From: Alphaproteobacteria bacterium
GTDB lineage: Bacteria > Pseudomonadota > Alphaproteobacteria > RF32 > CAG-239
Reading direction: 5' to 3'
DNA length: 64,000 nt
Assembly: GCA_045613125.1 (NCBI GenBank)
Contig: JAZLAM010000022.1
Location: forward strand, 77,813 to 141,812
Below are positions 1 through 63,862 of this stretch, one piece after another. The notes beneath the pieces were generated by a model. That model had not been told where the DNA came from. It did not search any database and saw only the letters and a program-made list of their open reading frames with translations. A program made the position numbers and the translations under genes. How positions within the stretch are numbered: position 1 is the stretch's first letter; each line of letters begins with the position of its first letter.

Positions 1-381
1 AAGTTTCCTTTCAATTTCTGCTGCCAAACCAAAAGCAAAAGCCAAAACTTTGCTTTGTATATCATTACCCAAGCGATAATTTTCTTTTATAGTCCAGACT
101 TGGCACTCTTTATTAAGACACGTTTCTAAAATATGCATCACTTCAAGCAGAGAACGCCCTAGACGAGATATTTCACATGAAATTAAAATATCGCCACTTG
201 TTAATTCATCTAATAATTTTCCCAATTTTCTCATGCGCAACGATTTTCGAGATGAAATTTTTTCTTCCACCCATTTATTAATTTTCAACTTATTAAGTTT
301 AGCAAAACGTTCCAACTCATATTTTTGATGCTCTAATGTTTGTTTTGAAGAACTTACACGAATATAACCAATTACAGACAT
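1..381 (-). CDS. Serine recombinase (resolvase/invertase family), N-terminal catalytic domain; C-terminal HTH part runs off the window
   Basis: Reverse-strand translation from ATG at 379-381: MSVIGYIRVSSSKQTLEHQKYELERFAKLN...GDILISCEISRLGRSLLEVMHILETC. The YIRVSS.(K)Q catalytic-serine motif and RLGRS are typical of resolvase/invertase. An RBS-like AAAGGAT lies upstream. Not in the ORF track because it is truncated by the window edge. Confidence 0.7.
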   Translation of the reverse strand, partial: MSVIGYIRVSSSKQTLEHQKYELERFAKLNKLKINKWVEEKISSRKSLRMRKLGKLLDELTSGDILISCEISRLGRSLLEVMHILETCLNKECQVWTIKENYRLGNDIQSKVLAFAFGLAAEIERKL

Positions 382-7599: not shown

Positions 7600-7898
7600 C
7601 TAAAAGTCCTTTATTTACAATACATTCAACGATTTTAAACTGCTCGTTTTAAACGTACGTTTAAATCAAGCAGTTTTTTTGATGTTTTTTACATTTTTTT
7701 ATTTCTTCTAACTGTTTGAAAAACAATAAAAGACAATTTTTAAATTTTACAATTTTCTCATTTTTGCACTGATTAATTTAAACGTACGTTTAAATTACAC
7801 TACTGTTGTGTTTGAAAAGCTTGAAACATAAGCCAAAGCGCTTGGCAAATGTGTTGCTTTTTTAACACTTGTAACGTTACATATAAGGAGACTTAATT
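7600..7898 (+). promoter_or_regulatory. Conserved ~290-bp 5' regulatory/leader region (copy A) with two perfect 18-bp palindromes TTTAAACGTACGTTTAAA
   Basis: Palindromes at 7648-7665 and 7777-7794. A CCAAAGCGCTTGG near-palindrome and the RBS AAGGAGA lie before the ATG at 7899. High identity to 44190-44477. Confidence 0.45.
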
Positions 7899-8504
7899 AT
7901 GAAAAAACATATTTTATTAACCACAACGGCAATGTTGTTATCTGCCATAACTCTAAAAGCAAATGCCGATTCAAACAGTGCTCATTTAAATATAGATGCT
8001 TTATTTGTAAAGCCAATGGAGTTGGTTACTGAAAACAACCTTAAATTTGGTATGATTTTAGCCGATGAAGGCGGAAAAACGGTGATTGTGACTCCTAACG
8101 GAGATTTAGGAGAAACATCTACCGCAACTATGATATCTAAAGCATCATATAAAAACAGCTACCAAGGATCTTTTAATGAAGCCCAAATTAGACTAAAAGG
8201 ATTTCTAAATGAAGATTATGATGGTGCTGATTTTTTCGAGCCTAATGAAGAAAATATGAATATGGTATATACAGCAACTTTTGACAACAATGAAGTTGAG
8301 CTAAAAAGCAACACTGAATCTATAACGTGTGGAACAGTTACAGATTTTACTATCAAATATACAGCTGAAGATGATGATGCAATCTTACATGTAGGAGGAA
8401 CCTTAACCACTGCAGATTTGAGAGGCCAAACTAGATCATTAATGTGCCACGGTTCAACCACAGTTACAATAGTTGTAAATGAGGAAACTATGAAAAGTTT
8501 ATAA
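7899..8504 (+). CDS. Secreted/surface protein, paralog A (related to the 44478..45008 gene)
   Basis: Signal peptide MKKHILLTTTAMLLSAITLKANA. Shares KANA, TCGTVT and overall Thr/Ser-rich beta-like composition with paralog B. Same conserved upstream leader. Confidence 0.5.
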   Translation: MKKHILLTTTAMLLSAITLKANADSNSAHLNIDALFVKPMELVTENNLKFGMILADEGGKTVIVTPNGDLGETSTATMISKASYKNSYQGSFNEAQIRLKGFLNEDYDGADFFEPNEENMNMVYTATFDNNEVELKSNTESITCGTVTDFTIKYTAEDDDAILHVGGTLTTADLRGQTRSLMCHGSTTVTIVVNEETMKSL

Positions 8505-18773: not shown

Positions 18774-20627
18774 GTGACTAAAAAATTTCTATCAGAAAAT
18801 ACAGAATTAATGAAAGAATGGGATTGGGAAGCAAATGAAGGCTTAAATCCCAATGAAATTACATGTGGTAGTCATAAAAAAGTTTGGTGGAAATGCTCAA
18901 AATGTGGATATAAGTGGTGTCAAGCTGTTGTTGATATTTCTAGAAATAAAATAGAATCATGTTGTCCTGCTTGCACTAATAGGGTTTTAATAAAAGGAAA
19001 AAATGATTTAGCGACGATGTATCCTGAAATTGCTAAAGAATGGGATTTTTATAAAAATAAGGACTTAACTCCAAATAATGTAACATTCAAATATTGTAAA
19101 AAAGTTTGGTGGCTATGCCCTAAAGGACATAGATATGAACAACGTATTGACAATAGAACCCTAAGACACACTAGTTGTCCGTACTGTTCAAATACGTGGG
19201 TTTTGAAAGGTTTTAATGATTTAGCTACAATAAATCCTAATTTAGCTAAAGAATGGCATCCATCTAAGAATGGATGTTTAACTCCTTATGATGTTACAGC
19301 AAATAGCACCAAAAAGGTTTGGTGGTTATGTCCTGTCGGGCACGAATATATAAGAAGCGTACATCAAAGACATGCTGCTTATACTAATTGTCCCACCTGT
19401 GATTCTCGTAAACGTACATCTTTTCCTGAACAAGCTGTCTATTTTTATCTTAAAAAGCTTTATCCTGATGCCATTTCAAGATATAAGATAAATGAAACAT
19501 CAAGTATGGAGCTAGATATATATATTCCTTCTATACAATTTGCGGTTGAATACGATGGAGCATCATGGCATAAAACAGAAGACTGCCATAACCGTGAGAT
19601 AAAAAAATATCAATTTTGTAAAAAATACGGAATAACATTAATAAGAATAAAAGAACAAAATGGTATATATTGGGATGATGTCTGTGATAACATTTATTAT
19701 ATAAAACCAGTAAAACGTAATGATTTATTTGAATTAGAAAAAATTATCAATTATGTTTTAAATTCAATATGTTCATCTATTGATGATTTGCTAGAAGCGA
19801 CTAGAAGCAATATTAACCCTTTGGATTATTCTAAAAGCATACAGCATATTCCATTACCAAAGCCTTTTAAACTTTTTCGCCATAAAATAGATGTAAACAT
19901 AGAAAGAGATAAAAATGAAATTCAAGGATATGTGTTCAAAATTGAAAACTCTTTGGCAGATTTACGACCTGATGTAGCAAAAAAATGGAATTATGATAAA
20001 AATGGAAATTTAACACCTGAAATGTTTAGTGTTGGCTCAGAAGAAATAGTATGGTGGAAATGTCCCAAATGTGGGCATGAATGGAAAATTTCTATAAACA
20101 GCATGACAGGAAAGAAAAGAGGAAATGGATGTGCTATATGTGCAAAAATAGAAAGAGCACAGAAAAGCGTTATAACAAAAATTAAAAATGGAAATTCTTT
20201 AGCTGAGAAAAACCCACAAAAAGCAGAATTGTGGCATCCATCTAAAAATGGAAATTTAACTCCTTATGATGTTACAGCATGTAGTTCTAAACAAATTTGG
20301 TGGTTATGTAAAAAATGTGGATACGAGTGGCAAATGAGCCCTCATAATAGAAAGAAAGGACAAGGTTGTCCCCATTGTGCTGGTAAAGTTCCTTTAGTAG
20401 GTGTTGACGACCTAGCATCAACACATCCAAAATTAACCAACGAATGGAATTATGACAAAAATATCAATATTGCACCTCAAAATGTTAAAGCAGGAAGTGA
20501 TAGAATTGTTTGGTGGAAATGTTCAAAATGTGGCTTTGAGTGGCAAGCTGTTGTTAGATTTAGAGTAAAAGGCTTAGGTAAATGTCCTCATTGTTCTAAA
20601 AAACAATTGGATTTAGGCCTAGAATAA
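18774..20627 (+). CDS. Zinc-ribbon-repeat protein: 3x treble-clef zinc-ribbon (PF14311/DUF4379-like) + DUF559/Vsr-like endonuclease-fold domain + 3x zinc-ribbon
   Basis: Six repeats of W.(W/P/H).SKNG.LTP.(D/N)VT..S.K.VWW.C.KCG(Y/H)EW....R....GCP.C. The central block FAVEYDGASWHKTEDCHNREIKKYQFCKKYGITLIRIKE resembles the DUF559/very-short-patch-repair restriction-endonuclease-like fold. GTG start. Confidence 0.6.
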   Translation: MTKKFLSENTELMKEWDWEANEGLNPNEITCGSHKKVWWKCSKCGYKWCQAVVDISRNKIESCCPACTNRVLIKGKNDLATMYPEIAKEWDFYKNKDLTPNNVTFKYCKKVWWLCPKGHRYEQRIDNRTLRHTSCPYCSNTWVLKGFNDLATINPNLAKEWHPSKNGCLTPYDVTANSTKKVWWLCPVGHEYIRSVHQRHAAYTNCPTCDSRKRTSFPEQAVYFYLKKLYPDAISRYKINETSSMELDIYIPSIQFAVEYDGASWHKTEDCHNREIKKYQFCKKYGITLIRIKEQNGIYWDDVCDNIYYIKPVKRNDLFELEKIINYVLNSICSSIDDLLEATRSNINPLDYSKSIQHIPLPKPFKLFRHKIDVNIERDKNEIQGYVFKIENSLADLRPDVAKKWNYDKNGNLTPEMFSVGSEEIVWWKCPKCGHEWKISINSMTGKKRGNGCAICAKIERAQKSVITKIKNGNSLAEKNPQKAELWHPSKNGNLTPYDVTACSSKQIWWLCKKCGYEWQMSPHNRKKGQGCPHCAGKVPLVGVDDLASTHPKLTNEWNYDKNINIAPQNVKAGSDRIVWWKCSKCGFEWQAVVRFRVKGLGKCPHCSKKQLDLGLE

Positions 20628-24237: not shown

Positions 24238-24777
24238 ATGATTAATTTAATTAGTTTTTTTAATAAATGCAAAGATGAGAAAAATGACAATATATCTATA
24301 TTGCACGATTTAGTATCCGAAGCAAAAGTGTATGTGAAAAAGAATTTTTGCCCTTGGAAAGATGATGATTATCCCGAGGTAACAGAATTTTATCAAATAT
24401 CGTACGATGGTATTTTAGAAGATGAAGATTTAGAGCCAAGCTTTTCACAAATGCTTTTTAAGTTTATAAAACAACAAGGAATATCTGAAACAGATTGTTA
24501 TAAAAATGCAAATATTGATAGAAAATTATTTTCGAAAATAAGAAGCGATGATGAGTATCAGCCTAAAAAAACAACAGTTTTTGCATTTATTATCGGTTTA
24601 AAATTAAATTTAGATGAAGCAAAAAAATTATTGGAGTGTGCCGGATATTCTTTATCCCACAGTAAAAAACAAGACATAATAATAGAATATGCAATCAAAA
24701 AACAAATTTATGATATAAACATGGTTAATGAAATTTTATATACTTTAGAATGTCAAACTTTAGGTAGTAAAGAGTAA
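24238..24777 (+). CDS. Putative helix-turn-helix (XRE-like) regulatory protein
   Basis: FSQMLFKFIKQQGISETDCYKNANIDRKLFSKIRSDD...TVFAFIIGLKLNLDEAKKLL resembles a Cro/C1-type HTH. Confidence 0.4.
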   Translation: MINLISFFNKCKDEKNDNISILHDLVSEAKVYVKKNFCPWKDDDYPEVTEFYQISYDGILEDEDLEPSFSQMLFKFIKQQGISETDCYKNANIDRKLFSKIRSDDEYQPKKTTVFAFIIGLKLNLDEAKKLLECAGYSLSHSKKQDIIIEYAIKKQIYDINMVNEILYTLECQTLGSKE

Positions 24778-24808: not shown

Positions 24809-24833
24809 ATCCCCCTCATATTAATGAGAGGGA
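24809..24833. terminator. Bidirectional terminator hairpin ATCCCCCTCAT-ATTA-ATGAGAGGGAT + T-run
   Basis: Lies between the convergent HTH gene and thrS. A related hairpin occurs at 26382-26404. Confidence 0.45.
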
Positions 24834-24841
24834 TTTTTGTT

Positions 24842-26119
24842 TTATAAATCTAAGCTTCTGTTTCTTATTTTTTCAGACACTCGTTCCATAAAATCGGCAA
24901 GAGAAACATTGTTTATTTGCTTAGAGTTTCTTAATCGAACGGAGATATTGTTATTTTCCACTTCTTTATCGCCTACAATAACAATATATGGAATTTTTTT
25001 CTTAACAGCATCTCTAATTTGATAAGAAATCGTATTACCGGAAATATCAGCTTCTGCACGTATATCATTTTCTGACAATTGCTGTTGAATCTGAAGAGCT
25101 ACACTTTGGTGCCTGTCAGATATTGGCAAAATTTTAACCTGAACAGGTGATAACCAAACCGGTAATTTACCTTCGCATTGTTCCAGATAAACACCTATAA
25201 AGCGTTCGATAGAACCTAAAATTGCACGATGTAACATAATCGGCACATGCTTTTGTCCGTCTTCACCGATGTAGAACATTCCCCACTTTTCCGGTAAATT
25301 TAAATCAAGTTGTATCGTCATACATTGCCATTCTTTACCGTTTTTATCGATTGCTTTAACATCTATGGCCGGTCCGTAAAATTTTGCACCGCCGATATCT
25401 ATGTCATATGGAATGTTTTTATCTTTTAACACTTGTTCGACTGATTGTTCTGCCATCTGCCAAATTGGTTCATTATCAATATATTTATCTTTTTTGCTTT
25501 GCAAATCTCTGATAGAAAAATAAACTTTGAATTTATCATAACCAAAAACTTTATTGATGGCAAAACCGAAATCAAACACTTTTGAAAGTTCTTCCATAAA
25601 TTGATCTTGGCGACAGATGATATGTGCATCATCTTGCGTAATTGATCGAACACGTAACAATCCTTGCAAACCGCCGGATGCTTCATAACGATAAACATTT
25701 CCCAATTCGCAATATTTAATCGGCAACTCTTTATACGAGTGTATAGAAGAATTATAAATTGCCACATGAAAAGGACAGCTCATCGGTTTCACATAATAAG
25801 CGCCCTGCTCTTCTTTGTCTTTTAACGACATATCCATTAGCGGATACATACAATCGGCAAAATGTTCCAAATGGCCGGATTTTTCCCATAACTGTTTTAA
25901 TCCCACAACTGGAGAATATACATATTTATATCCGGCTTTTTGATGTTCTTTTTTCCAAAAAGATTCAATTTCGTTTCGTATAATTGCACCATTCGGATGC
26001 CATAAAGCCAGTCCGGAACCTATATAATCGTTGAAAGAAAATAAATCTAATTCTTTACCGATACGACGATGGTCGCATTCGGACACACTTTGTTTTTCAT
26101 CTATATTAATGTTATTCAT
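24842..26119 (-). CDS. thrS: Threonyl-tRNA synthetase-like, catalytic core + anticodon-binding domain only (lacks N-terminal TGS/editing domains)
   Basis: HRRIGKELDLF, LWEKSGHLEHF, KPMSCPFHVAIY, RVRSITQDDAHIIC (class II motifs of ThrRS). 425 aa versus about 640 for canonical bacterial ThrRS. AT-rich non-coding sequence lies upstream. Confidence 0.75.
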   Translation of the reverse strand: MNNINIDEKQSVSECDHRRIGKELDLFSFNDYIGSGLALWHPNGAIIRNEIESFWKKEHQKAGYKYVYSPVVGLKQLWEKSGHLEHFADCMYPLMDMSLKDKEEQGAYYVKPMSCPFHVAIYNSSIHSYKELPIKYCELGNVYRYEASGGLQGLLRVRSITQDDAHIICRQDQFMEELSKVFDFGFAINKVFGYDKFKVYFSIRDLQSKKDKYIDNEPIWQMAEQSVEQVLKDKNIPYDIDIGGAKFYGPAIDVKAIDKNGKEWQCMTIQLDLNLPEKWGMFYIGEDGQKHVPIMLHRAILGSIERFIGVYLEQCEGKLPVWLSPVQVKILPISDRHQSVALQIQQQLSENDIRAEADISGNTISYQIRDAVKKKIPYIVIVGDKEVENNNISVRLRNSKQINNVSLADFMERVSEKIRNRSLDL

Positions 26120-26410
26120 CTTTTTAACCTTTACTAAAATTGCTAAACTTTAAATATTAAATTGCTTGTACGGATATGAAATCCGGAAAATAAGAAATAT
26201 CACCGCTGTTTAAGCGGTGGTGGTGGTTGTGGTCAAGGTTAAAAACATACAAAAAGACGCAGAACTTTCATTCAAGTTCTGTTGAAAAGATTGTAAAAAA
26301 ATGTCTCTTTCGTTTAACATGGGTTCATACTTAACATAATTTTGAACTTTTGTCAATTTATTTTTATAAAAACAATAATTGTCCCCTCATATCATTGAGA
26401 GGGAGTTTCT

Positions 26411-27310
26411 TTATTTACAATAAATTGAGGCTTTAACTCCACTAAAATCAGTGATAGCACCTGATATTCCCGAATGGGTAAAATGAGTATATTTATTCAT
26501 ATCAGAATAAACATTCTCAACCACGTTATTTACCTTTGCATAGTCAATCTCAAATTTTGTTTTTTTGCTATGCCATAATAAAATTAGCATAAAAATTTCC
26601 GCAGAAGTAAATTGAGTAATTTTTCTTACTTGTGCATACTCTTTTTCTAGCTCCCTAGCCCACTCATGGCTATAAGAAATTTTGCTCATTTGCTTTAATA
26701 TATCAACTGTTTGAGCAAAAATTTCTTCATTTTTTTCATCATTTTTTGCCAACTGATGCCAATGATGCAGCCATACATTTGATTTTATAGAATCGGAATT
26801 AAAAACCAAACACAACGGAATTACATATTTCAAATGTTCAGGATAAAAATGTAATGCCGTCTCAAAAGCATTGAGAGGCTTATCAGGTTTAGTAATCGCC
26901 GCACATTCCCAGTCAATGTATATATCCACTAAGTGAACAATTGAAGTAAACTTACCTGACTCAATATGATATGGGTTGTTTCTTTGATGAATGATTTGTA
27001 TTTCATCTTCTTTTAACCATGGACACATATACATCCAAGGTTTGTCCCAATCGTGAAGAAAACCACGTAAAGAATATCCGCCGGTAAAATGATACTCACA
27101 AGCCAAAAATGCTAACTTGTGTTCCAATGTATAACAAACAGAAGGTAAACGCCAGTTTTTTCTCGCGTTCCATTTATTACTTTCTTTGTTTAAGAATTTA
27201 CGTAACTTACTGTCTAACAGTTGATACGCTCTATTCACTTTTGTTATCATCTTCAGTATCAGGTTTTGCCAAATCTTGTGCAACTTTTGGATTACGTAAA
27301 AGTTTTTCAA
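26411..27310 (-). CDS. Hypothetical protein, candidate HD-domain phosphohydrolase; long paralog of the 2474..2992 gene
   Basis: FLHDWDKPWMYM and IDWECAAITKPDKPLNAFETALHFYPEH match the operon paralog. The 5' end overlaps the rbfA stop, so the true start is probably internal. Confidence 0.4.
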   Translation of the reverse strand: MKNFYVIQKLHKIWQNLILKMITKVNRAYQLLDSKLRKFLNKESNKWNARKNWRLPSVCYTLEHKLAFLACEYHFTGGYSLRGFLHDWDKPWMYMCPWLKEDEIQIIHQRNNPYHIESGKFTSIVHLVDIYIDWECAAITKPDKPLNAFETALHFYPEHLKYVIPLCLVFNSDSIKSNVWLHHWHQLAKNDEKNEEIFAQTVDILKQMSKISYSHEWARELEKEYAQVRKITQFTSAEIFMLILLWHSKKTKFEIDYAKVNNVVENVYSDMNKYTHFTHSGISGAITDFSGVKASIYCK

Positions 27311-44189: not shown

Positions 44190-44477
44190 TTACAATGGTT
44201 TGAAGAATTTCAAACTGTTCATTTTAAACGTACGTTTAAATCAAGCAGTTTTTTTGATGTTTTTTTCGAACTTCTATTTCTTCTAAATCTTTGAAAAACA
44301 ATAAAATGCAAATTTTAAATTTTGCAAATTTCTCCTTTTTACACTGCGTCAAAAAAACGTACGTTTAAATTACACTACTTATGTGCTGAAAAAACTTGGA
44401 AATCTGCACCAAAGCGCTTGGTGTGGTTGTTCGTTTTTTTAGCCTATGTAACGTTATATAAATAGGAGATTTTTATT
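44190..44477 (+). promoter_or_regulatory. Conserved ~290-bp 5' regulatory/leader region (copy B), highly similar to 7600-7898
   Basis: TTTAAACGTACGTTTAAA at 44223-44240, half-site AAACGTACGTTTAAA at 44355-44369, CCAAAGCGCTTGG, and RBS AGGAGA before the ATG at 44478. Confidence 0.45.
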
Positions 44478-45008
44478 ATGAAAAAAACTTTATTACTTGC
44501 CACAACCGCAATCGTTTCTGCTTTCGCTTTTAATGTAAAAGCTAACGCCCCAACAGTTGAAATTCAAGCTAAAGCTAAGGTAGTATCACCAAGTGTGTTA
44601 GAATCTATACAAGAATTAGATTTTGGCACAGTTGCATATCATTCTGGAGCTCGTTACACTGTTTCTAAGGATGGGACAGCTGAAGCAAGCGGTGATTATG
44701 CACAAATGTTTGGAACTCCTTCTGTCGGAAAAATCAAATTGAGAACAGCCCTCAGAGGTGCTAGTGAGCATTATTCTTTGTTACTACCTCAGGAAATGGA
44801 ACTAAAATTTGGTCAAAACACTTGTGGAACAGTGTCCGCTTTTTCACAGGCAACACCAACTTTTGTAAACATAGTTGACGGTGTAACTGATTACGAAATA
44901 GCATTTGGTGGCACCTTTACTATGTCTGATACACTTGAAGCGAGCATTCATCATGATGGAGCAGTTTGCTCAGGTTCTGCGACAGCTACTTTAGTGTATA
45001 CAGAATAA
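44478..45008 (+). CDS. Secreted/surface protein, paralog B (related to the 7899..8504 gene)
   Basis: Signal peptide MKKTLLLATTAIVSAFAFNVKANA; shared TCGTVS and KANA motifs. Confidence 0.5.
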   Translation: MKKTLLLATTAIVSAFAFNVKANAPTVEIQAKAKVVSPSVLESIQELDFGTVAYHSGARYTVSKDGTAEASGDYAQMFGTPSVGKIKLRTALRGASEHYSLLLPQEMELKFGQNTCGTVSAFSQATPTFVNIVDGVTDYEIAFGGTFTMSDTLEASIHHDGAVCSGSATATLVYTE

Positions 45009-47475: not shown

Positions 47476-48645
47476 TTAACAAAATTCTTTTAAGCGTTTG
47501 ACAGCTTCTTTTATGTTTTCTTCCGAACAAGCATAGCTTAGCCTGATATAATCAGGTGCGCCGAAAGATGCACACGGAATTACGGCCAAAAGTTTTTCTT
47601 CCAAAATCTTTTTAGCAAATTCATCAGATGTCATGCCTGTTTTTGAAATGTTACACATTACATAAAATGCACCCTTAGGCTCTACGATTGTCAAATTGTT
47701 TACATCTTTTAACAATTCGCAAATCAGTTTTTTGCGTTTGGCAAAAGCTTCAACCATCATATCAACTTGTTCGTCGGCTTTTCCTTGTAAAGCAACGACA
47801 CCTGCATATTGCACAAAAGATGTTGCATTACTGGTGGAATGGCTTTGCAAAGCACTTATACGTTTGGTAAGCCAAAGTGGAGCTGTTAAATAGCCCAAAC
47901 GCCAACCTGTCATGGCATATGCTTTAGAAAAACCGTTGACCGTGATGGTAAGCTCTGCAATTTTATCATTAAGACTTGCAATACTGATATGTTTATCTTC
48001 AGGATTATATATCAGCTTTTCATAAATTTCATCCGATAAAACCATAATGTTGTTTTTAACCGCAACATCTGCAATCATCTCCAAAGTGTTGCGAGAATAT
48101 ACCGCACCGGTCGGATTGTTTGGAGAATTACAAATAATCAGCTTTGTTTTAGATGTTATGGCTTTTTCCAAATCGGCTCTGACAGGTTCAAAGTTGTTTT
48201 CGGCTGCAGTGTTTACAACAACAACTTTTGCTCCGCTTGCGCTTATCATCTCAGGATAAGAAAGCCAATATGGAGCAAACAAAACGACCTCATCGTCTTT
48301 TCCGCACAAAGCCGCAATTGCTTGAAACAAAGCAAACTTGGCTCCGGTTGAAATTACAATGTTTGCAACATCTGTTTTTATACCGTTACCGGCAAACTTT
48401 TTTACAATTTCTTTTTTTAATTCAGGCAAACCTGACGCTGCCAAATAGCGAACTTTACCGTCATTAATTGCCTTAATACATTCTTCTTTTATGGCTTTAG
48501 GTGTATCAAAATCAGGCTCACCTGCTGTCATGGAACAAATATCTGCACCACTTGCTTTTAGTTCTTTAGCTTTAGCCGAAATAGCAAGTGTCGCAGAAGG
48601 TTGCATTGCTCCCAACGGACTAAAATTTTCTTGTAAATTTTGCAT
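47476..48645 (-). CDS. aspC: Aspartate/aromatic aminotransferase (class I PLP-dependent)
   Basis: SFSKAYAMTGWRLGY (PLP-lysine motif), NPTG, and overall AAT layout. Confidence 0.8.
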   Translation of the reverse strand: MQNLQENFSPLGAMQPSATLAISAKAKELKASGADICSMTAGEPDFDTPKAIKEECIKAINDGKVRYLAASGLPELKKEIVKKFAGNGIKTDVANIVISTGAKFALFQAIAALCGKDDEVVLFAPYWLSYPEMISASGAKVVVVNTAAENNFEPVRADLEKAITSKTKLIICNSPNNPTGAVYSRNTLEMIADVAVKNNIMVLSDEIYEKLIYNPEDKHISIASLNDKIAELTITVNGFSKAYAMTGWRLGYLTAPLWLTKRISALQSHSTSNATSFVQYAGVVALQGKADEQVDMMVEAFAKRKKLICELLKDVNNLTIVEPKGAFYVMCNISKTGMTSDEFAKKILEEKLLAVIPCASFGAPDYIRLSYACSEENIKEAVKRLKEFC

Positions 48646-62685: not shown

Positions 62686-63138
62686 CTAAGACAACAAAGA
62701 TTTGATTATACCTGAAGCTTTACCAAAATCCATCTGTCCGGCATATTCGTTTTTTAACGCTGCCATAACTTTCCCCATATCTTTTATAGATTGAGCGCCA
62801 ATATTAGCAATTACAGATTGTATAACCTTGTTTACTTCATCATCGCTTAGTTGTTTTGGCAAAAAGCGTTCAATAACCTCAATTTCTGCTTTTTCTTTTT
62901 CTGCTAACTCCGGTCTGTTTCCCTCTATATAAATTTTAACAGATTCATTTCTTTGTTTAATCATTGTTTGCATCATTGCTAAAAGTTCTATGTCTTCAGC
63001 TTTTTCTTTTCCTTTTCCTCTTGCTTCCACATCTTTTTCTTTTAAGCCCGCAATAATTAAACGAACAGCACCAACAACAGCCATATTTTTTTCTTTCATT
63101 GCTTCTTTTAAGGCATTTTGCAAATCTTCTCTTAACAT
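62686..63138 (-). CDS. GatB/YqeY domain protein
   Basis: MLREDLQNALKEAMKEKN...VRLIIAGLKEKDV...KQLSDDEV. ATG at 63138 has an AAGGAGA RBS; the track's longer N-terminus is unlikely. Confidence 0.7.
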   Translation of the reverse strand: MLREDLQNALKEAMKEKNMAVVGAVRLIIAGLKEKDVEARGKGKEKAEDIELLAMMQTMIKQRNESVKIYIEGNRPELAEKEKAEIEVIERFLPKQLSDDEVNKVIQSVIANIGAQSIKDMGKVMAALKNEYAGQMDFGKASGIIKSLLS

Positions 63139-63148
63139 AAATTTCTCC

Positions 63149-63862
63149 TTATCTCTTTTGATTATTAGTATCTTTAAAAGTAACATAAACTGATTTTGCA
63201 TATGGAGTAGGATTGGTTACGACAACCTTAAACAGTACTTGATAGCCGGCTTCCAAACGAGGTAGCGATAATTGTTCTTCCATATTCAACAATAAATTTC
63301 CCTCTTTATCCAAAATCTCAATTTTAACTGGGGGAAGTTCAACAACATATTTGCTCAAATTAACAACTGTTCCACTAATTTCAATCTGTGAAATATTGTG
63401 TTCTGTATATTCTTTAGTCGTTATATTTTTTAGTTCTAAATGCATTCCGTAATGAATACTTGGTATATTTATTTTAGAATAGAAGTTTTCCGCTTGAGGG
63501 AATAAACGCACTATATCGTAACGAAAAGCATAAAGTAGTATTATAGTTGCTAACATAGAGAGTATAATTGCTATAATACTTGCTACATTACTTTTTTTAT
63601 AAGTTCCTCTCTTTCTTACCTTTTCAACCACACTCAAAGCATGATTCTTTTCGTCAACAAATAAATCATTGGTCTCTTTAGAAAGATGCTGAAACATTTT
63701 CTGTATATTTTTGGGAGTTGTATTTATTTTTTTAAGAGCATCTTCCGGATATCCCACCCATATTTCAGAACATTCACAACAACGCATTTTCAACCCTGCA
63801 TCTGAAATTAAATCATCGGGTAAATCATAAACTGAACGACATTTCGGGCACTTTATTAACAT
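63149..63862 (-). CDS. MJ0042-type zinc-ribbon membrane protein (DUF3426-like)
   Basis: N-terminal MLIKCPKCRSVYDLPDD...RCCECSEIW double CxxC, a central TM and a C-terminal beta-rich domain. Confidence 0.5.
   Translation of the reverse strand: MLIKCPKCRSVYDLPDDLISDAGLKMRCCECSEIWVGYPEDALKKINTTPKNIQKMFQHLSKETNDLFVDEKNHALSVVEKVRKRGTYKKSNVASIIAIILSMLATIILLYAFRYDIVRLFPQAENFYSKINIPSIHYGMHLELKNITTKEYTEHNISQIEISGTVVNLSKYVVELPPVKIEILDKEGNLLLNMEEQLSLPRLEAGYQVLFKVVVTNPTPYAKSVYVTFKDTNNQKR

Follow-up and report, generated by a model that had tools for sequence, protein, structure and literature searches.

The thrS gene in a 64,000-nucleotide stretch of DNA from an Alphaproteobacteria bacterium (contig JAZLAM010000022.1, positions 77,813 to 141,812 of the forward strand; hereafter, the window) encodes a threonyl-tRNA synthetase (ThrRS) of 425 residues that consists of a catalytic core and an anticodon-binding domain, contains almost no threonine (Thr), and is preceded by a short open reading frame (ORF) ending in a run of Thr codons. 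In the interpretation that we favor and regard as probable, this is the functional and probably sole ThrRS of a gut alphaproteobacterium with a reduced genome, the Thr-codon leader induces thrS when charged tRNA-Thr is in short supply, and the enzyme has been purged of the amino acid that it handles. A preliminary description of the window had recognized the reduction to two domains and overlooked the two most unusual features of the locus, the Thr-codon leader and the near-absence of Thr in the enzyme.

Domain content and distribution of the short ThrRS

The thrS ORF (Table 1) and its motifs HRRIGKELDLF, KPMSCPFHV, and RVRSITQDDAHIIC were confirmed as first described. Pfam matched tRNA-synt_2b (PF00587) to residues 102–314 (E = 4e-38) and HGTP_anticodon (PF03129) to residues 327–416 (E = 9e-23), and neither TGS nor tRNA_SAD was matched in the short ThrRS. 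The NCBIfam thrS equivalog model TIGR00418 scored 507.2 bits (cutoff 383.65), and its match covered profile positions 165–564 of 565, with positions 1–164 unmatched. In a search of solved structures, residues 239–640 of S. aureus ThrRS aligned with the short ThrRS (E = 4.5e-105), and the alignment with the engineered E. coli delta-N ThrRS (1EVK/1EVL) was full-span (residues 16–423 to 2–396). The Pfam matches, the TIGR00418 span, and the delta-N alignment are in agreement with the earlier assignment of catalytic and anticodon-binding domains only.

The earlier statement that there is no in-frame continuation upstream also holds, as an in-frame TAA lies 30 nt before the thrS ATG, with equivalent stops in 26 of 26 relatives. 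Neither an upstream frameshift nor an adjacent ORF for the N-terminal domains was found, and the same N-terminus recurs in 26 independent metagenome-assembled genomes (MAGs) and two metagenome contigs. Remnants of the missing region were sought in the window and 26 related loci (L001–L026), with the N-terminal domains from 88 full-length relatives as tblastn queries, and none was detected there; in the positive control, a contiguous N-terminus was retrieved in eight of nine outgroup loci. The sole match, L023:17917–18291, was considered as a split gene or remnant and corresponds to the editing domain of an alanyl-tRNA synthetase (AlaRS). An orphan ORF of the window (26411–27310), considered as a diverged editing domain or partner, has no Pfam match, and all 26 related loci lack a homolog. 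The truncation of the window ThrRS is real and not a product of assembly.

In E. coli numbering, all 26 short enzymes share without variation the zinc ligands C334, H385, and H511, the motif 2/3 arginines R363 and R520, and residues E365, R375, Q381, D383, Y462, Q479, T482, and Q484, and L489, the borrelidin-resistance position, is unchanged in all of them. The K465A substitution is also present in the full-length relatives and is therefore a lineage trait. The median ratio of nonsynonymous to synonymous substitution rates (dN/dS) in the short thrS family is 0.048, with a maximum of 0.11 and with dS near saturation (1.2–3). These values indicate strong purifying selection, as expected for a working synthetase and not for a pseudogene, and the intact active site together with a dN/dS of ~0.05 suggests that the short ThrRS charges tRNA-Thr. 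From its domain content, it lacks cis-editing of Ser-tRNA-Thr and would be prone to mischarging with Ser unless a trans-editing factor exists, as the preliminary description pointed out. An assembly or frameshift artefact, a decaying pseudogene, or an antibiotic self-resistance ThrRS would draw on the unusual length only, and we assign these explanations a negligible probability in view of the identical start and upstream stops in 26 independent assemblies, the low dN/dS, the intact catalytic residues, and the unchanged L489. The antibiotic-resistance duplicate that had been proposed initially, and borrelidin-type self-resistance in particular, are further contradicted by the clade-wide rather than patchy occurrence of the gene and by its housekeeping context.

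In a distribution scan with one genome per GTDB species, the short thrS was found in 26 species-level MAGs of uncultured gut or rumen bacteria (72–97% identity), which are labeled Alphaproteobacteria bacterium, uncultured proteobacterium, or Candidatus Enterousia. Two further, more divergent copies (66%) are located on JGI metagenome contigs. All copies have the identical N-terminal start (MNN...EKQSxSExDHRRIGKELDLF), with stop codons immediately upstream. Enterousia is placed in the GTDB order Rs-D84, and since the window ThrRS is 83% identical to that of named Enterousia MAGs, the window genome probably belongs with Enterousia/Rs-D84. Rs-D84 genomes measure 0.67–1.6 Mb, mostly <1 Mb, with ~800–1,200 genes; they have no amino-acid biosynthesis, and dependence on partner cells has been proposed (PMC12306168).

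The ~0.56 Mb of clade DNA examined contained no further ThrRS, TGS, or ThrRS-type editing domain, and there was no free-standing editing domain among the window ORFs. A tblastn search of the 26 loci for editing domains of the ThrRS/AlaRS type retrieved only AlaRS; the YbaK and DTD types were not searched. A free-standing derivative of the ancestral editing domain was also sought in the protein database, where the matches were partial or split thrS genes of other organisms; those on large contigs belonged to unrelated organisms, with thrS split or frameshifted. On three unrelated contigs, thrS is split into an editing ORF (180–241 aa) and a catalytic ORF (325–369 aa) inside thrS-infC-rpmI-rplT-pheST operons (L044:6001–7721, L046:2241–4053, and L047:2369–4138). 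The L044 split looks like long-read frameshift noise because its neighbors are also split, and the recurrence at similar positions in the three contigs might include genuine split genes. The AlaRS at L023:16297–18375 (692 aa) apparently lacks the C-Ala domain, retains the editing HxxxH and CxxxH motifs, has a normal Ala content (7.9%), and has no leader. Because it retains the editing motifs, editing loss is not general to the synthetases of the clade.

The leader ORF and RNA structures upstream of thrS

The DNA upstream of thrS had been described as AT-rich and non-coding. It contains a conserved promoter, a leader ORF, and structured RNA, the coordinates of which are collected in Table 1. 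In the window, the end of the −10 element and the leader ATG are 7 nt apart, and the transcript is therefore expected to be leaderless or nearly so. The T..TA of the −10 element and the leader ATG are invariant in the alignment, and the −10 consensus in the relatives is TGnTATAAT, 6–7 nt before the ATG. A leader ORF of 30–38 codons, with its invariant ATG 5–9 nt past the −10 element, precedes 29 of 29 short genes despite their differing upstream neighbors. The leader frame is open in all 26 sequences tested, whereas the other two frames contain 3.1 and 1.9 stops on average and are open in none. ORF lengths in 26 sequences are 34, 35, or 36 codons, with indels in multiples of three, and the spacer between the leader and the thrS ATG (77–117 nt) shows no phase preference. 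The encoded peptide ends in ...TLTTTTTTA before the stop; in the window, the C-terminal end is MFLTLTTTTTTA, and a GC hairpin follows the stop directly. Thr is concentrated in the last nine codons, which contain 4.9 on average (range 2–7) compared with 0.04 in the preceding 25–27. The stop codon, TAA or TAG, is retained in the loop of the hairpin, except in L022, in which it has moved three codons to a TGA. Average identity between leaders is 67%, compared with 46% at fourfold-degenerate sites of thrS. The ATG, the open frame, the 3-nt indels, and the kept stop argue that the leader ORF is translated.

The leader RNA contains three hairpins (H1–H3) and a strand complementary to the thrS Shine-Dalgarno (SD) region, the anti-SD strand. 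H1 may serve as an RNA polymerase pause hairpin. The last Thr codon together with the Ala codon makes up the 5′ arm of H2; the UAA stop is located at the 5′ edge of the loop, and its first base closes the stem. In the minimum free energy (MFE) fold of the window leader, the anti-SD strand pairs with the SD and start region in a stem that encloses H2 and H3 (z = −3.6, equaled by none of 200 shuffles). RNAalifold returned no structure for the MAFFT alignment of the leaders, and the structures were instead assessed by projection, by folding each sequence individually, with an anchored alignment, and with a covariance model. Of the cells of the projected pairs on the raw alignment, 78.7% are paired, compared with 39–45% in slid registers, and compensatory changes are found in five of eight pairs of H1 and four of five pairs of H3. 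For the anti-SD:SD stem, all sequences were anchored uniformly, with the first in-frame ACC set against the GGU of the SD; 8–15 of 16 positions are then paired in 29 of 29 sequences. Nine of the 16 pairs in register show double changes, as illustrated by pair 8:29 (AU in 14 sequences, GC in five, and GU in two), and the covariation score was reached in 5 of 500 shuffles. Explicit compensation is seen in L038 (SD core AAAGAUC, leader GAUCUUU) and in L039 (UUUGACCUUU against AAAGGUCAAA). The covariance model, built from 26 leaders, gave matches only upstream of thrS in the 666 kb of sequence scanned and retrieved three untrained copies at 60–160 bits, with the next best match at 29 bits.

Table 1. 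Positions of the thrS locus features in the window.
Feature	Position	Strand	Details
thrS, ThrRS of 425 aa, catalytic core and anticodon-binding domain only	24842..26119	−	ATG start
Sigma70-type promoter	26328..26356	−	−35 TTGACA (26356–26351), 17-nt spacer, extended −10 TGtTAAGTA, hexamer 26333–26328
Leader ORF, 36 codons and stop	26210..26320	−	MLNERDIFLQSFQQNLNESSASFCMFLTLTTTTTTA; frame open in 26/26
Thr-codon run	26216..26239	−	ACC UUG ACC ACA ACC ACC ACC ACC
H1 hairpin, inside the leader ORF	26260..26281	−	CAGAACUU-gaauga-AAGUUCUG, followed by a U-rich stretch
Anti-SD strand	26232..26249	−	UAUGUUUUUAACCUUGAC; overlaps the first Thr codons of the run
H2, GC-rich terminator-like hairpin	26201..26219	−	CACCGCU-uaaac-AGCGGUG
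U-rich tract after H2	26186..26200	−	AUAUUUCUUAUUUUC
H3 hairpin	26171..26185	−	CGGAU-uucau-AUCCG
thrS SD region	26120..26134	−	GUAAAGGUUAAAAAG; pairs with the anti-SD strand
Terminator hairpin 3′ of thrS	24812..24832	−	CCCTCTCAttaaTATGAGGGG; twin of the 26383–26403 copy
Twin hairpin, past the 3′ end of the upstream orphan ORF and immediately 5′ of the promoter of thrS	26383..26403	−	CCCTCTCAatgaTATGAGGGG

No Rfam family matched the leader, T-box (RF00230) and Thr_leader included; for RF00230, this held at the gathering threshold and also when E values up to 10 were admitted. As a control, RF00230 does detect the T-boxes of the Rossellomorea aquimaris locus L032, described below. Mimicry of the tRNA anticodon, as in the E. 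coli thrS operator, was rejected, as no leader loop contains a Thr anticodon.

Leaders of related design precede full-length thrS genes. The closest full-length relative, P0028, was reached via a weak covariance-model match; its enzyme has 598 residues, includes the editing domain, and is 62% identical to the short ThrRS. P0028 thrS is preceded by an ORF encoding MRNFIEIQINTTTGLTTTTTA, the stop codon of which lies within a UACCGC/GCGGUA hairpin that has a U-rich tail. The Thr run with the stop in a hairpin is found in four of the six nearest full-length relatives and in none of 14 more distant thrS loci. L040 and L041 have near-consensus promoters (11/12 matches) that end 6–7 nt ahead of the leader ATG. 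H2 was classed as terminator-like in the window and, with the same design, in L037 and L040, but not in L041; the short family has an interrupted U-tract that is offset from its stem. The Obg GTPase on one of the full-length-relative contigs is 71% identical to its only named match, from an alphaproteobacterial MAG. The leader thus appears to be older than the truncation. Since the leader-bearing full-length relatives show no obvious anti-SD stem, this layer is not ancestral.

Elsewhere in ~0.5 Mb of clade DNA, the Thr-run leader design was represented only by chance-like cases. The only other Thr-run mini-ORF there, L010:3418–3483, ends in ...ITTNTTTTAFNR upstream of a CorA-like transporter gene (YGMN motif) and was judged a chance occurrence because it has no hairpin context like that of the thrS leader.

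Mini-ORFs of another composition occur in the window itself. Two paralogous DUF4402 proteins that are very rich in Thr (12.9% and 11.4%) are encoded on the plus strand at 7899–8504 and 44478–45008, each ~190 nt downstream of a 9-codon Phe-rich mini-ORF (7682–7711, MFFTFFYFF, and 44257–44286, MFFSNFYFF). Duplication of an upstream element or simply the AT-rich composition may explain these mini-ORFs.

Threonine depletion and the proposed regulation

The window ThrRS contains three Thr in 425 residues (0.7%), at T161, T268, and T363, all encoded by ACG. The other 55 ORFs of the window average 4.8% Thr (Poisson P of about 2e-6 for ThrRS). Enzymes of the short family contain one to six Thr, whereas the same region comprises 2.5–6.1% Thr (mean 4.2%) in the 88 full-length relatives and 4.0% in E. 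coli. Among the replaced residues are positions that are Thr in 100% of the 88 relatives (T69S, T267M, T299A, and T310V). The only invariant Thr, T268 (E. coli T482), has ACG as its codon in 26 of 26 genes. In short thrS genes, 75 of the 79 Thr codons are ACG, a codon that makes up 14.5% of Thr codons in the clade background and 1–3% in L017/L018 and is the rarest Thr codon in the clade genomes. The Thr codons of the leaders (n = 129) are partitioned differently: 108 ACC, 17 ACA, two ACG, and two ACT. ACG is presumably read by a different isoacceptor than ACC, and the clade genomes retain other C-first isoacceptors. The full-length enzymes with a leader have normal Thr content and mixed Thr codons.

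One other window ORF is strongly Thr-poor, with one Thr in 171 residues (62686–63201, minus strand). It adjoins dnaG and encodes a YqeY-like protein, of a family related to the tRNA-binding C-terminal domain of GatB. Its composition could be due to chance (~0.14 such ORFs are expected among 55) or to the same starvation logic.

We propose the following order of events. The lineage would have inherited a thrS gene that already lacked TGS and already had the Thr-codon leader in gut Alphaproteobacteria; the editing domain would then have been deleted, leaving an enzyme that aminoacylates without cis hydrolysis of Ser-tRNA-Thr, and the Thr purge and the SD-sequestering stem would have followed. 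This order, together with the leader common to full-length thrS, suggests that the short gene is the ortholog of the housekeeping thrS.

We consider it likely that the leader ORF senses Thr-tRNA-Thr via the dwell time of the ribosome on the Thr codons. Transcription would begin at or beside the AUG of the 36-codon leader ORF. When charged tRNA-Thr is scarce, the ribosome would stall on the leader Thr codons, and with its A site on the first of these, it would cover the entire anti-SD strand and leave the thrS SD unpaired; it would probably also block formation of the H2 terminator, with increased synthesis of ThrRS as a result. When charging is adequate, the ribosome would terminate and depart, and the structures would re-form. 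In the transcriptional layer, the 5′ arm of H2 would be occluded directly, and release at the stop codon would soon be followed by termination. As far as the relative weight of the two outputs can be inferred, SD unmasking is the best supported in the short family, and the ancestral core (Thr run, Ala codon, and stop in a hairpin) suggests a transcriptional output. The direction of regulation, induction in shortage, is suggested by the Thr-poor, ACG-coded enzyme, the synthesis of which would barely depend on the very Thr-tRNA pool whose shortage induces thrS.

Several observations weigh against this interpretation. The −10 element of the window is weak and was not called in the promoter scan. 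The leader shows no codon-position periodicity, which is usual for regulatory leader ORFs, yet means that there is strong constraint at the RNA level; the ACC triplets are also held by two helices, and some of the Thr run might therefore result from RNA structure rather than from decoding. Of 27 sequences, just 13 form the anti-SD:SD stem in the MFE fold, the stem has moderate support from covariation, and cognate anti-SD:SD duplexes are barely better than non-cognate ones (−11.6 vs −10.5 kcal/mol) because the SD is conserved. Statistics over 26–29 sequences ignore shared ancestry. As noted above, the leader-bearing full-length relatives have no obvious anti-SD stem. A classical 2:3 antiterminator was not seen in folds or alignments, and the Thr codons abut the terminator directly, so a ribosome stalled on the first of them would leave H2 uncovered, which makes the kinetic logic of the transcriptional layer uncertain. 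Finally, no tRNA-Thr gene was present in the fetched DNA, hence tRNA-Thr(CGU) was not seen.

Alternatively, the leader might be a transcription attenuator only, in which the 5′ arm of H2 would be covered by a ribosome that stalls at the end of the Thr run, and the SD complementarity would be incidental in an AT-rich sequence. The Thr run, the stop-in-loop hairpin, and the U-rich tract are the sole part in common with full-length relatives, H2 is called terminator-like, only about half of the MFE folds include the anti-SD stem, and slid registers still pair 49–52% of cells. However, compensatory changes preserve the anti-SD:SD pairing when the SD core changes (L038, L017/L018, L020/L021, and L019/L039), and the interrupted, offset U-tract of the short family and the lack of an antiterminator do not favor attenuation. 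We therefore regard this alternative as rather unlikely. It is very unlikely, in our judgment, that the upstream element is untranslated, i.e. a structured RNA that is bound by a protein (for example, in ThrRS autoregulation as in E. coli) or by tRNA, with ACC kept for pairing. Such an RNA would be invoked by the missing periodicity and by ACC triplets located within helices, but it would not account for an invariant ATG 5–9 nt past the −10 element, for a leader frame that is the only one open, for 3-nt indels, or for a stop retained as TAA or TAG in the loop; moreover, there is no T-box or other Rfam match and no loop resembling the tRNA-Thr anticodon loop. Repression by E. coli ThrRS requires its N-terminal domain, which is missing from the short ThrRS. 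The authors of the study of the LEU element, a leader discussed below, cite Leu-codon mutations without regulatory effect and favor a protein factor (PMC1262725), which is a point for the untranslated RNA.

The short gene might also be a second, starvation-inducible ‘emergency’ ThrRS, with a canonical full-length thrS elsewhere that possibly provides editing in trans. Inducible regulation and Thr avoidance are what such an enzyme would need, and the Bacillaceae locus L032 has an independent ThrRS that is N-less and Thr-poor, located behind tandem T-boxes, and presumably an extra copy. Duplicate synthetases are unusual in genomes as small as those of Rs-D84, however, and every one of the 26 species representatives recovered carries the short gene, whose dN/dS (~0.05) is that of a gene under constraint. 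The leader in common with full-length thrS of related Alphaproteobacteria suggests orthology, and the ~0.56 Mb of clade DNA contained no second ThrRS and no ThrRS-type editing domain. An emergency copy thus appears unlikely; because of the genome size of Rs-D84 and the leader inherited from full-length relatives, we argue that the short thrS is probably a single-copy gene.

A broader form of our favored interpretation, which we hold with slightly less than even confidence, extends it to the whole order: Rs-D84 would rely on a single proofreading-free and nearly Thr-free ThrRS, a leaderless Thr-codon ORF would unmask its ribosome-binding site, ACC would be the sensor codon and ACG the protected codon, and the N-terminal loss would be part of the same adaptation to imported Thr.

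Genomic setting and comparison with known systems

The ‘accessory neighborhood’ of the preliminary description is not borne out, as the window is ordinary housekeeping chromosome, with rimP-nusA-ylxR-infB-rbfA, grpE, adk, ksgA, lptD/F/G, surA, lpxA, recJ, dnaG, xseA, uppP, ldh, and adhE. Synteny around thrS is fluid and not conserved even in the 97%-identical relative L001, which rules out a conserved operon context. The neighbors that had been called a helix-turn-helix gene (24238–24777) and an HD-like paralog (the orphan ORF) have no Pfam support. The ‘similar flanking hairpins’, on the other hand, are real: two near-identical 21-nt palindromes (CCCTCTCA-N4-TATGAGGGG) bracket the promoter-leader-thrS unit, and there are exactly two in the window, with a chance expectation of 0. 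The twin hairpin was found in none of the other loci examined, and L001 has a different terminator downstream of thrS.

Compared with L001:9558–9760, the window contains a ~21-kb segment (~26400–47475) between the thrS leader and an aminotransferase gene (47476–48645). It comprises the orphan ORF, rbfA-infB-ylxR-nusA-rimP, adhE, an AsmA-like gene, and nucleoside-salvage genes, and is a recent rearrangement with one junction at the twin hairpin. The orphan ORF (299 aa, minus strand) overlaps the stop codon of rbfA; this position, 3′ of rbfA, is often that of truB. A partial serine-recombinase (resolvase) gene at 1–381 (minus strand) is 73–82% identical to resolvases in L040:3164–3796 and L041:3174–3749, which adjoin leader-controlled full-length thrS genes, and GNAT acetyltransferases are also found repeatedly close by. 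A mobile element in common or mere relatedness of the genomes may explain these resemblances. A 617-aa protein encoded at 18774–20627 (plus strand) contains six DUF4379 treble-clef zinc-finger repeats that surround a weak restriction-endonuclease-like region (MTES_1575/DUF2726). Its gene adjoins tRNA-Pro(CGG) and is missing at the corresponding place in L001.

With regard to domain content, the E. coli delta-N ThrRS (residues 242–642) has the same two-domain composition as the window protein, but it is a laboratory truncation with normal Thr content, whereas the window enzyme is natural, clade-wide, and Thr-purged. In work attributed to Dock-Bregeon et al. in 2000, delta-N ThrRS reportedly aminoacylates tRNA-Thr and also makes Ser-tRNA-Thr. 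The yeast mitochondrial ThrRS MST1 (3UGQ) is a PDB match to the short ThrRS (E = 4e-70); it differs from the window enzyme as a eukaryotic, organellar protein that depends on editing inside the aminoacylation site, and we know of no leader ORF or Thr purge associated with it. Editing-less ThrRS is known in yeast mitochondria (PMC4267643), and reduced-genome, host-restricted bacteria lose or degrade synthetase editing, an established pattern (PMC10057733, PMC7373986) that includes Mycoplasma and is associated with Li 2011 and Melnikov 2018. The lifestyle of Rs-D84 fits this pattern, although ThrRS cases are not detailed in PMC10057733 or PMC7373986.

The leader also has partial counterparts. 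pheST is a synthetase operon that is controlled by a leader peptide (pheM). In thrL, pheM-pheST, and the predicted Streptomyces trpS/leuS attenuators, a short ORF with a run of cognate codons precedes a terminator hairpin, an arrangement that the leader ORF and the terminator-like H2 resemble. The window leader differs from classical attenuators in the absence of a 2:3 antiterminator, the location of the stop in the terminator loop, the apparently leaderless transcript, and the target, thrS. The proposed SD unmasking resembles translational attenuation of the cat-86/ermC type. Leader-peptide control of synthetase genes is precedented (PMC1262725). In the actinobacterial LEU element (leuA), a cognate-codon run pairs with the downstream SD in a base stem that encloses inner helices, similar to the arrangement described here; it differs in amino acid, gene, and phylum, contains a pseudoknot, and its authors doubt that ribosome stalling is the signal (PMC1262725).

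For the codon partition, the E. coli thrL leader contains eight ACC codons, the codon that is also used by the window leader, and isoacceptors for rarely used codons stay charged under limitation (PMC1183508). According to the cognate-bias hypothesis, an enzyme that is required when an amino acid runs short should itself avoid this residue (PMC4209129). The window thrS resembles the systems considered under cognate bias and selective charging in its Thr-avoiding enzyme and in its starvation-sensitive sensor codons as opposed to protected codons, but these were described for biosynthetic enzymes and E. coli leaders and not for a synthetase (PMC4209129, PMC1183508). It is also distinguished by extreme depletion combined with strict ACG use.

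In the open-access full-text literature, no description was found of leader-ORF control of thrS or of the purge of a cognate amino acid from a synthetase. A precedent exists for each ingredient (editing-less ThrRS, leader-peptide control, and cognate avoidance), and their combination was not found described. If our interpretation is correct, the short thrS would be a natural bacterial system for tolerance of Ser-for-Thr mischarging without cis-editing and a natural embodiment of the selective-charging and cognate-bias theories in a synthetase, in which selective charging can be tested at the level of sequence with one amino acid and different codons in sensor and enzyme. It would also provide an evolutionary series of domain loss in an essential enzyme, from a full-length form with a leader to a truncated, Thr-purged form with an SD-sequestering stem. 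That an auxotrophic, partner-dependent gut bacterium retains fine control of one synthetase hints that Thr supply is a recurrent bottleneck in its niche.

The closest parallel to the overall design is found in Rossellomorea aquimaris (L032:9467–11194, NZ_LQXM01000029.1), in which an N-less, Thr-poor ThrRS of 400 residues is also encoded behind a sensor of tRNA-Thr charging. This enzyme contains four Thr (1.0%, compared with 5.9% in neighboring ORFs), encoded by ACA and ACT, and upstream of its gene are two T-box leaders in tandem (96 and 101 bits), the specifier regions of which contain ACC. Unlike the window gene, it has a tandem T-box as its sensor, its product is only 41% identical, and it resides in a large free-living genome, presumably as an accessory copy. 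The two designs are convergent on a small, Thr-poor, starvation-sensed ThrRS, and because the T-box version of the Bacillaceae is independent, a ThrRS that is small, poor in Thr, and induced by starvation may be a recurrent design.

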